Origin: a virus
Lineage: Duplodnaviria; Caudoviricetes
Strand: one strand, 5' to 3'
Length of the DNA stretch: 56,291 nucleotides
IMG/VR virus record: IMGVR_UViG_3300047557_001143
Coordinates: 1 to 56,291 of that record
The notes under the pieces were generated by a model that had not been told where the DNA came from, ran no database searches, and saw only the letters and a list, made by a program, of their open reading frames with translations. This document shows positions 23,601-25,519 of the stretch, piece by piece (within the stretch, counting starts at the first letter, position 1; each line of letters begins with the position of its first letter). The position numbers and the translations under genes were made by a program.

Positions 23601-25519
23601 CCGGAGGGGAAGTAATTCCCGGCGTCCAAGGGCCCACCCTGCCTGCTGACATCATGTTCATGACAGGCGCTGAGAAGGGGCGCCTGTACAACGACCTTAT
23701 TGGCCAGGGCTTTACCGAAAAGCAGATTCGTGACGCCGTAGAAGCCCAGGTTGGCCCTCAGAGTGATATTGACTGGGCCCTGCTAAAGACTCGTGCTTTT
23801 GAGCAAACGCAGACCCCGATTGATGTCGTTGGGTCTGGAACAGGGTCTGGGACCGGCTCTGGTTTTGGTACTGGCGTAGGCTCGGGAACCGGCGTAGGCA
23901 CCGGGGTTGGAACTGGTACGGGCGTCGGAACTGGTGTTGGAACAGGCTCTGGCGTTGGGACTGGTCTTGATACCGGGACCGGACTGGGTACTGGCGCAGA
24001 GGTCGGCACTGGTATTGAAGTTGGAACCGGAGTCGACACCGGCACAGGCATAGGAACCGGATTCGGAACCGGCACCGGTATCGGTGTGGGTACGGGCGTT
24101 GATACCGGAACTGGAACGGGCGTCGAAGTTGGAACTGGTGTTGGCACCGGAACCGGTGTTGATACCGGCACAGGAACCGGAACTGGCTCGGGCTCTGGTA
24201 GCGGTTCTGGCTCAGGTTCTGGGAGCGGGTCAGGAAGTGGTTCAGGAAGTGGTTCTGGTTCCGGCAGTGGCTCAGGGTCTGGCTCGGGGAGCGGGTCAGG
24301 ATCTGGTTCTGGCAGCGGGTCAGGAAGTGGCTCTGGGTCTGGCAGTGGTTCCGGTAGCGGGTCTGGTTCTGGAAGTGGTTCCGGTAGTGGAAGTGGCTCT
24401 GGATCAGGGAGTGGCTCCGGTTCTGGGAGTGGTTCCGGATCAGGGTCTGGCAGTGGATCTGGCAGCGGATCAGGCTCCGGCAGTGGTTCCGGATCAGGTT
24501 CGGGAAGCGGGTCTGGTAGTGGGTCTGGTTCTGGTTCAGGTTCAGGTTCAGGTTCTGGTTCTGGATCGGGATCGGGATCGGGATCGGGATCGGGTAGCGG
24601 TTCCGGCTCAGGTAGCGGATCTGGCGAAGGTTCCGGTAGTGGTTCCGGTAGTGGCTCCGGAAGCGGATCTGGAAGCGGTAGCGGATCTGGTTCAGGGTCC
24701 GGCTCGGGATCTGGCACTGGCACTGGTACTGGAACGGGGTCCGGAACTGGAACAGGAACAGGAACAGGTTCTGGTACTGGCACCGGATCTGGTACAGGAA
24801 CGGGATCTGGCACCGGCAGTGGAGAAGGCCCTGGCCTGCCGCCGATTCCTCCTCTGCCGTCGAGGACCTCCGCAATCCCGGCTGTTGCCATTGCGGGCGC
24901 TACCGGCCCTGAATTAACTCGTCTTGCTGCGCAGTTCCTTGAGGCAAAAGAAGTGCCGACTCGTTACAGAGATCCTCTGGCTGAGGTTCGCCGTCTACAG
25001 GAAGAATTTGAAAGAGATGCCATGATTCAAAACATCGACCCGAGTCTGCGGGATGTGCTCATGAACCGTCTGGGCGAGCCCGCTCCGGAGAGAAGTCTTG
25101 ACCGCGGGTTCTACACCTACGGCGAGGAAGAAGACATCGGCGACATCCTTGGCGGCGGATCACCCGGCTTCGCTCAAGGCGGGTATGTTGCCCCCCTGCA
25201 GATGAACGAAGGCGGTATGCCGATGCCCCTGATGGCAAAAAAGGGAGGCTTGCCGCGAGAGGACTTCCGGGACGGCCGCCATGTTGCCGGCAAGGGGGAT
25301 GGCCAGTCTGACGACATCCCTGCGTGGTTGGCGGACGGCGAGTTCGTCTTCCCGGCGGATGTGGTTTCCGCCCTCGGTAACGGGTCTACCAAGGCCGGAA
25401 CTGACAAGTTGTACAAGATGATGCACGAGATCCGGGCCAGGGCAAGATCCAAAGGCCCGAAAGATTTGCCGCCTCCCGCTTTGAAATCTCCTCTTGACTA
25501 CCTAAAATCAAAGAAGTAA
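20648..25519 (+). CDS. Large internal virion/ejection protein with low-complexity tracts and C-terminal DDIPAxLxDGEFV domain
   Basis: 1623-aa ORF after tail genes; hydrophobic Gly/Ala segment; TTGG, GT and GS tracts; FAQGG/MNEGG/AKKGG motifs before the GEFV domain. Confidence 0.75.
23245..23605 (+). repeat. Coding GGTTG/GGLPGG repeats
   Basis: Translation of 20648 ORF; synonymous codons vary between copies. Confidence 0.9.
23831..24820 (+). repeat. Coding (GT/GV) and (GS)n dipeptide tract
   Basis: 73 consecutive GS (24185-24622), one GE, 14 more GS (24629-24712), flanked by GT repeats. Confidence 0.95.

Follow-up and report, generated by a model that had tools for sequence, protein, structure and literature searches.

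What is a segment resembling the C-terminal part of the lambda tape measure protein (TMP) gpH doing at the end of a giant protein in a phage that appears to be short-tailed? The question is raised by a 1623-amino-acid (aa) open reading frame (ORF) in a viral DNA of 56,291 nucleotides (Duplodnaviria; Caudoviricetes), which is the IMG/VR record IMGVR_UViG_3300047557_001143 over its positions 1 to 56,291 and is referred to here, at its full length, as the window. An initial annotation, made from the letters alone, had described positions 25169–25519 as a lambda gpH-like GEFV domain on an ejection protein, and had suggested that it could act in trans on the other xxxGG motifs, as a self-releasing peptidase or as a recognition module. 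The lambda gpH-like character proves to be genuine homology, whilst the reading as a peptidase fares badly. We give an about even chance to the explanation that the C-terminal segment is a flexible, non-catalytic leading-end module, common to TMPs and to the first ejection protein of this phage clade.

An abundant C-terminal module

The ORF (20648–25519, + strand; 4872 nt) is the first gene of a post-hub 'ejection protein' cassette. Positions 25169–25519 are its last 117 residues, with the stop codon at 25517–25519, and the F codon of FAQGG (residue 1508) begins at base 25169. The elements of the module are the following, A1 and A2 being alignments of 46 and of 73, more diverse, sequences.

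25169–25183, + strand: hxxGG motif 1, FAQGG, residues 1508–1512 (A1 consensus here ..GGxVxPL)
25202–25216, + strand: hxxGG motif 2, MNEGG, residues 1519–1523
25235–25249, + strand: xxxGG motif 3, AKKGG, residues 1530–1534
25289–25366, + strand: module core, residues 1548–1573
25355–25447, + strand: predicted helical hairpin, residues 1570–1576 and 1581–1600 (AlphaFold2 with A2; confidence score pLDDT ~88–92, model residues 71–100)
25448–25516, + strand: Pro/Lys-rich conserved C-terminal tail, with L109, S116, P117 and L118 invariant in A1

FAQGG, MNEGG and AKKGG thus precede a GEFV core at the end of the ORF, as the initial annotation had noted. The core starts 76 residues from the end and has the consensus G-x-G-x-x-S-D-[SD]-I-P-A-x-L-x-x-G-E-F-V, behind one to three motifs of the form [hydrophobic]-x-x-G-G (hxxGG). 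Core and tail are nearly invariant in A1. In A2 the residues G50, G52, S56, D57, I59, A61, L63, F68 and V69 are invariant, although those of SDSIPA..GEFV were preset by the search pattern in 51 of the 73 rows. The homologue in GenBank record MW202545 shares the Pro/Lys-rich tail.

A phmmer search with the last 125 aa against 1.84 billion representatives returned 12,612 matches at E ≤ 1e-3 and 1,926 at E ≤ 1e-10, values which rule out chance or low complexity as their source. The best 150 of the 12,612 are proteins of 120–3022 aa in which the match ends, as judged by eye, within about 20 residues of the C-terminus. No model for the module exists in Pfam (E ≤ 1) or NCBIfam (E ≤ 0.1), and phmmer with the 213-aa C-terminus against the PDB sequences gave no match at E ≤ 10. 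The ESM Atlas returned unnamed viral clusters only, the nearest named entry being 'Crassvirus cargo protein 1' with a value of 0.81, which is chance level. From its sequences the segment can be described as an unnamed, very abundant module family which otherwise marks the C-terminal part of TMPs. A 'calcium-binding' label in the record of Synechococcus phage MinM2 prompts one further candidate, namely that GxGxxD may form an RTX-like calcium-binding turn.

The hxxGG motifs are coupled to the core by position. In A1, 36 sequences extend 45 aa or more upstream of the core; every one of them has an [FYWLMIVA]xxGG within the 60 aa before it, and 34 have two or more. Among the IMG/VR module loci listed, [FYWLMIV]xxGG has a density of 1.8–2.5% at positions −30 to −11 and of 1.4–3.5% at +30 to +49, as against 0.35% more than 150 aa away; the 5–10-fold excess, with peaks about 20 residues before and about 40 after the core, is descriptive, since the sequences are related and the counts not independent. 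Owing to this coupling the motifs are to be seen as parts of the module, not as targets cut by the module itself. The window module has three xxxGG copies upstream of its core and none downstream. Counted along all 1623 residues, hxxGG shows no enrichment: there are 11 copies, fewer than the 17 which shuffles predict for a protein with 22% Gly. Only the three at the C-terminus carry meaning.

The initial annotation had placed the domain beside many other xxxGG proteins. One such gene is indeed present, though not many: the ORF at 1271–2317 (+ strand), after the capsid gene, encodes a Lys-rich 348-aa protein with 12 [FYLM]xxGG motifs where 1.9 are expected. This protein is tied to the module solely through the common motif. 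No family matches it, and the Atlas model, at pLDDT 0.43, predicts disorder. Its orthologue in MW202545 (E 2e-42) retains the motifs, with the N- and C-terminal ends conserved, and is its single relative: tblastn with the Lys-rich protein found this one phage record only, in which the module is also present. Four or more [FYWLM][AK]xGG motifs occur in just 7 of the 1893 ORFs that reach 120 aa or more in the window and 130 loci, these being five module carriers, the Lys-rich protein and its orthologue.

Homology to the C-termini of tape measure proteins

Scanning IMG/VR with a DNA pattern encoding SDSIPAxL[ST]xGEFV yielded at least 120 loci, with at least 113 instances in at least 111 ORFs. Among the matches listed, most modules lie 41–131 aa from the C-terminus, some of the ORFs ending at contig edges. 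The matches were sorted by eye into three classes. Class A consists of short marine proteins carrying the module. In class B the module lies 46–59 aa from the end, as in the window protein. Class C consists of TMP-like ORFs of 700–3000 aa with the pattern FAxGG-hxGPGTxTSDSIPAxLSNGEFVVNA..L..IN.G..FAxGGhV. One GenBank record with a small marine-phage protein of the class A kind, that of Pelagibacter phage HTVC104P, was examined apart from the scan, and there the gene with the module comes after the portal gene. Cultivable candidates as carriers of the podophage form are the Caulobacter phage GB2A/RW group, Synechococcus phage MinM2, Planktothrix phage Pag-Yong1 and HTVC104P.

A hidden Markov model of class C, built from 23 module copies in 22 long TMP-like ORFs, detects the window protein with an E-value of 2.8e-10 (35.9 bits). 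Four PHROG TMP families match the window module over ~45 residues (E 3.2e-6 to 2.5e-4). In the PDB the A1 profile retrieved four chains only at E ≤ 10, with no ejection protein among them; it matched JBD30 gp46 TMP (8rk3_A) at residues 1002–1053 (E 0.008) and mycobacteriophage Douge gp16 TMP (8zdo_S) in two copies, 950–1003 and 1412–1449 (E 4e-4). On these sequence comparisons the window module is very probably homologous to the C-terminal module of TMPs, where it lies past the last hydrophobic stretch and ahead of the terminal helix that binds the hub. The canonical form, as in class C, JBD30 gp46, Douge gp16 and the TMPs of loci L025 and L084, shares with the window protein a GxGTxxSDSIPAxLSxGEFV core behind FAxGG. 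It differs in lying 90–130 aa from the end, directly after the hydrophobic stretch and with a second FAxGG downstream, whereas the window module is ~70 aa from the end and ~1000 residues from the hydrophobic stretch, with no xxxGG downstream.

In neither of the two tail structures was the module built, as far as the available parts of the papers tell, a limit which applies to all literature cited here: the models contain only the last 33 residues of the JBD30 TMP (PMC11445458) and residues 1658–1699 of the Douge TMP (PMC13033339). An AlphaFold-Multimer model of the JBD30 protein shows residues 1022–1066, which overlap the module, as a 'hook', which in the speculation of its authors holds the TMP in the baseplate (PMC11445458).

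Lambda gpH itself is a more distant case. The motifs which the initial annotation had named are all in the NC_001416 protein, FATGG at 733, GEFVF at 754, LYRLM at 771 and YATGG at 778. Direct BLASTP between the window protein and gpH is weak (E 0.009), and the narrow family profile (A1 core) detected neither lambda nor T5, lambda being reached by the TMP-derived profile only. The class-C profile aligns colinearly with gpH 727–791 at 11.0 bits, compared with 7.9 for the best domain in 1000 gpH shuffles, whilst by full-sequence score one of the 1000 shuffles beat gpH (10.0 versus 9.4). Position provides the stronger argument. The L025 ORF has the Pfam domains TMP_2 and Tape_meas_lam_C, as in gpH, and a canonical module straight after Tape_meas_lam_C, where lambda has FATGG..GEFVF..YATGG; the L025 and gpH C-termini also match in BLASTP (E 6e-5). 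The positional match and the profile alignment together indicate that the gpH resemblance is real homology, with gpH 727–791 as a degenerate copy of the module at the orthologous position. A search with the gpH C-terminus found 80 loci at 87–100% identity, too close for a useful lambda-type profile.

Lambda gpH is also proteolytically matured, as the initial annotation had stated. It is cut in a Gly-rich region into gpH* (~78 kDa) and gpHC, the GEFV region falling in the released gpHC part; neither the site nor the protease is known, as far as the available text goes (PMC12617516). The structure described there resolves gpHC only at 818–849, bound to gpI, and leaves out gpH ~690–817 with the GEFV region. 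The gpHC piece (~690/735–853) resembles the window segment in the order of hAxGG, ..PA..h..GEFV and a helix (LYRLM in lambda, KLYKMM in the window), and both stand near the C-terminus of a protein exiting through the tail. Lambda gpH differs in being without the GxGxxSD[SD]I part, in having a second YATGG after the helix and in the binding of its terminal helix to gpI. Furthermore, it has TMP_2 and Tape_meas_lam_C, both of which are absent from the window protein, and the window phage has no long tail.

T5 offers a second, looser parallel. Its pb2 is cut after R1127 (PMC10038345), which in the T5 record (NC_005859) reads NSFVPR|AEGGMMYPGVSYQMGEHGTEVVTP, leaving 92 residues; the cut falls exactly at the A of an AxGG. 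This AxGG opens a second TMP C-terminal motif, hAxGG[IV]VxxPT..GEAGPEA[VI]xPL, of which IMG/VR holds at least 116 distinct instances in at least 120 loci (L211–L330). Among the matches listed, hxxGG density around this motif is 2.5–5.0% at −40 to −11 versus 0.19% far away. The second motif also occurs in 9g8s_w and in an F-type pyocin TMP that belongs to the lambda family (25vf_5, E 1.6e-12). The T5 match to it is only suggestive, with 4 of 1000 shuffles scoring higher, and an hhalign comparison of the two motif types connects them in the AxGG part alone (18 columns, probability 19%). The pb2C piece (1128–1219) is like the window segment in being small and C-terminal, in starting with AxGG and in having a GE..E.V.P element. 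It belongs to a channel-forming protein, remains in the virion and is regarded as the first piece to exit (PMC10038345). It is unlike the window segment in that its motif is of the second type, GE.G.E, in that neither profile detects pb2C significantly, and in that a muralytic activity has been claimed for it. In the T5 'metallopeptidase motif', GEHGTE, the His occupies a position (x in GExGPE) which is A in 97 of the 120 listed instances and H in none, and this casts doubt on the metallopeptidase label.

The protein and its gene neighbourhood

Outside the module the 1623-aa protein gives few clues. Gly makes up 22% of it, Ser 12% and Thr 10%. Pfam finds no family at E ≤ 1 over all 1623 residues, and hence no TMP_2, PhageMin_Tail or Tape_meas_lam_C; the sole PHROG match on the ORF is the TMP-family match at residues 1498–1572, and the N-terminal part matches no family. 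Two regions stand out by composition.

21797–21946, + strand: Ala/Gly/Leu-rich, weakly hydrophobic stretch, residues 384–433, with the only 19-aa Kyte–Doolittle windows above 1.2
23225–24847, + strand: Gly/Thr and Gly/Ser low-complexity spacer in blocks, residues ~860–1400 (~540 aa)

The first could be a membrane-interacting segment. The spacer is broken by a non-repetitive stretch at residues 990–1059, and the DNA repeats beneath it are imperfect (64–82% matches). Antisense ORFs of up to 387 aa opposite the spacer (23146–24891, − strand) are by-products of its composition. Relatives with an identical type of C-terminus range from ~900 to 3000 aa in length. On a near-identical contig of 56,565 bp the 165-aa product P0153 covers no more than the C-terminal end of the 1623-aa ORF, and the MW202545 homologue (L003:13282–15198, 639 aa) has two tandem GEFV-type modules and a Cys-rich middle in place of the Gly/Ser spacer.

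The record, rated by IMG/VR as 100% complete, has the following recognizable features around the gene.

Window start: Mu gpT-like capsid protein, truncated
16245–16886, + strand: adaptor, 213 aa (Pfam SU10_adaptor)
16245–20404, + strand: the adaptor, a 412-aa protein and a hub-like 756-aa virion protein, immediately upstream of the 1623-aa ORF
25530–26462, + strand: cassette gene 2, 310 aa, matching phrog_4287 'DNA ejection protein' (E 4.2e-6)
26465–29514, + strand: cassette genes 3 and 4, 669 aa and 347 aa, neither matching a family
30–44 kb: replication and auxiliary metabolic genes
44164 and 44759: small and large terminase
50812: portal
Elsewhere in the window: fibre-like proteins and a phage lysozyme

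Scanning 45 ORFs against PHROGs or Pfam gave no match to a tail tube, sheath, tail chaperone or TMP, except at the C-terminus with the module, and the phage is therefore taken to be short-tailed. This agrees with the statement of the initial annotation that there is no tape measure, as does the presence of the SU10-type adaptor. Nor does the 1623-aa protein as a whole qualify as a TMP, having no recognized TMP domain and, among the 45 ORFs, no long-tail gene context such as a tube or chaperone. As expected of a podophage ejection protein, its gene lies in a cassette after the tail hub genes, and the order runs from the 412-aa and hub-like 756-aa genes through the 1623-aa gene to three further large genes. 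A post-hub cassette of several large proteins is likewise found for the podophage ejection proteins of P22 (gp7, gp20 and gp16), T7 (gp14–16) and A4 (gp26–29), although none of these has a detectable sequence relation to the 1623-aa ORF.

A matching layout occurs in the GenBank records MW202545, phage DSL-LC04 and Caulobacter phage GB2A. In DSL-LC04 it comes after a 'stabilization protein' gene, and in MW202545 the equivalent cassette position closes with an SLT-domain protein, according to the record's own annotation. A homologue of the 756-aa protein is encoded 0.6–2.2 kb upstream on the same strand in 17 of the 31 listed loci with a module at most 60 aa from the C-terminus; 9 of the 14 loci without it have less than 1.8 kb of upstream sequence.

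Some further genes of the window lie outside this argument. A GroES-like (Cpn10) gene directly follows the portal gene (53649–54089, +), and a 1164-aa protein with a PcfJ-like domain is encoded between terminase and portal (47307–50801, +). An HNH endonuclease gene (2901–3323, +) lies within the structural module and a PAPS reductase gene at 35472–36308 (+). The ORF 4306–5376 (+) has a second, partial SU10_adaptor match and a weak F5/8 type C-like region.

Protease, processing site or leading end

Structure prediction and a fold search had been named in the initial annotation among the means of checking a peptidase, and they predicted no catalytic pocket and found no fold relative. The AlphaFold2 model has a pLDDT of 53 with A1 and of 65 with A2; with A2 only two helices are confident (model residues 72–78 and 83–102), and the SDDIPA..GEFV core, at pLDDT 50–64, is coil without secondary structure. 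No globular fold and no pocket is predicted for the module. Foldseek with the A2 model against the PDB gave four matches, all at E ≥ 4.2 and all to flagellar microtubule proteins, which were taken as meaningless. A homotrimer prediction (residues 37–125, A2) scored 0.10 against a mark of 0.42, which counts neither for nor against any reading. Furthermore, lambda gpH has GGKYEPAGIVHRGEFVF at its core, without the S-D. The lack of a predicted fold or pocket, the lack of a family match and the absence of S-D in lambda, where cleavage is documented, are the reasons for which we consider the module probably not a protease itself. A role as a recognition module, the other option in the initial annotation, may still apply.

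A resemblance of the core to the GxSMxPxLxxGDxhxV strand of the S24/S26 Ser-Lys peptidases (LexA and signal peptidase) was also considered and rejected: there is no Pfam match at E ≤ 1, no invariant Lys is present, the module is not long enough and lambda lacks the S.

The explanation as a leading end supposes a non-catalytic, conditionally folded module on proteins which exit via the tail channel. The module would be unstructured in the exit channel, would leave it first and would then fold against a partner, for which the nozzle lumen, the next cassette protein and an envelope component are candidates. Once folded it would tether the distal end of the protein, whilst the ~540-aa Gly/Ser/Thr spacer would span the periplasm and the hydrophobic stretch at 384–433 would meet the membrane. 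The N-terminal edge of the module may be cut by another protease, as in T5 and probably in lambda. This tethering mechanism is put forward tentatively, at somewhat less than even probability; the place of the 1623-aa protein in the virion, the order of ejection, the tethering and any cleavage of the protein are what we infer from the comparisons above.

Several points weigh against the leading-end explanation. Between the phages of Actinobacteria, Proteobacteria, cyanobacteria and SAR11 the core hardly varies, which argues for a universal ligand or chemical role and not for phage-specific docking. In some TMPs the module adjoins peptidoglycan hydrolase domains, which would fit a cell-wall role too. 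The binding partner is a proposal, and the IMG/VR listings behind the motif densities hold related sequences and not independent counts. Finally, tblastn with the three downstream cassette proteins found none of them at E ≤ 1e-5 in the 120 listed module loci, so that conservation of the 'cassette' is one of position only.

The alternatives can be set against the same evidence. That the GEFV domain is a peptidase, self-releasing or acting in trans, draws on the nearly invariant S, D, G and E of the core, on the positional coupling of hxxGG to it and on the five module carriers among the seven ORFs richest in [FYWLM][AK]xGG, and the gpH protease is still to be named in the available text of PMC12617516. 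It is nevertheless very improbable: to the structural negatives above must be added that no Pfam family, Peptidase_S24 included, matches at E ≤ 1 and no NCBIfam model at E ≤ 0.1, that the conserved part is just ~45–60 aa long, that no basic residue after the core is invariant across the classes when compared by eye, and that lambda gpH is cleaved although its GGKYEPAGIVHRGEFVF has no S-D. The authors of the JBD30 study also sought a peptidase motif in this part of the TMP and, in the available text, report none (PMC11445458).

A processing role without catalysis by the module is rather unlikely but deserves more weight. Here the hxxGG motifs would mark a cut made by another protease, of host or phage, which would free a C-terminal fragment of ~9–13 kDa like gpHC and pb2C; this is compatible with the leading-end explanation and would add one step to it, an addition that we likewise hold to be doubtful. 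The T5 cut at the A of AxGG, at the opening of a widespread TMP motif rich in hxxGG, points this way, as does the Gly-rich location of the gpH cut. A T5-like cut at F733|A734 of gpH would give 79.7 and 12.6 kDa (interpolated between the masses for cuts after 730 and 734), gpH* being of ~78 kDa. A candidate enzyme is at hand in lambda gpK as annotated (199 aa; L331, lambda K 14276–14875), which has a full NlpC/P60 domain and matches only the C-terminal half of Prok-JAB, slightly below the cut-off at 23.3 bits; its JAB domain was proposed by Iyer et al. (2006) to cut after the C-terminal glycine of gpI (PMC1779556). The action of gpK on gpH is, however, our own suggestion, not met in the available parts of PMC1779556 or PMC12617516. 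The weakness of the T5 match and the confinement of the hhalign join to AxGG also count against this role, no JAB, NlpC/P60 or M23 peptidase was found in the window, and for the podophage members the argument would run by analogy with lambda and T5.

Quite unlikely, in our estimate, is an envelope-directed module, which would bind peptidoglycan or another universal envelope component after ejection or help to breach it. Conservation of the core across very different hosts would suit such a role, and so would the CHAP domains which, according to Pfam, follow the module in two TMPs (L084 and L074). The F-type pyocin, whose TMP has the second-motif form, is a particle delivering no DNA, and the C-terminal region of T5 pb2 is reported as muralytic (as cited in PMC10038345). 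Against this, no known cell-wall-binding family in Pfam or NCBIfam matches the module, the T5 motif His is not conserved in the 120 listed instances, and the binding is itself only proposed. In another TMP, L076, two modules bracket what by eye is an SLT-like stretch.

An extension of the leading-end explanation, which we consider unlikely, is that the TMPs of long-tailed phages, the TMP of an F-type tailocin and, in a large clade of short-tailed phages, the first ejection protein all carry a single ancestral 'leading-end cassette' (hAxGG, P[AT]x..GE and a helix), with its hAxGG edge as a conserved maturation cut, mapped in T5 at R1127|A1128.

Whatever its role, the module occurs in at least 12,612 protein clusters, has neither an assigned function nor a model in Pfam or NCBIfam, and deserves a family model. 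Because of it, podophage ejection proteins already carry the name 'tail tape measure protein' in GenBank, as do the homologues of the 1623-aa gene in DSL-LC04 and Caulobacter phage GB2A. The literature search found no paper joining 'GEFV' with tape measure and, in the available texts on podovirus ejection proteins and tape measures, no mention of a common module. Podophages are described as having no TMP counterparts, TMPs and podophage ejection proteins being treated as non-homologous solutions (PMC12002296, in the part available), and the module provides a concrete sequence link between the two. In lambda and T5 it adjoins a maturation cut whose enzyme is not known, and offers defined residues to mutate. 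If the idea of one leading-end cassette were true, the cut in lambda gpH would be predicted at or next to F733|A734-T-G-G, and a 50-year-old question of gpH cleavage would become testable, with the JAB and NlpC/P60 domains of gpK, or self-cleavage by the module, as candidates. The giant podophage protein would then be a tail-less descendant or analogue of the tape measure protein.

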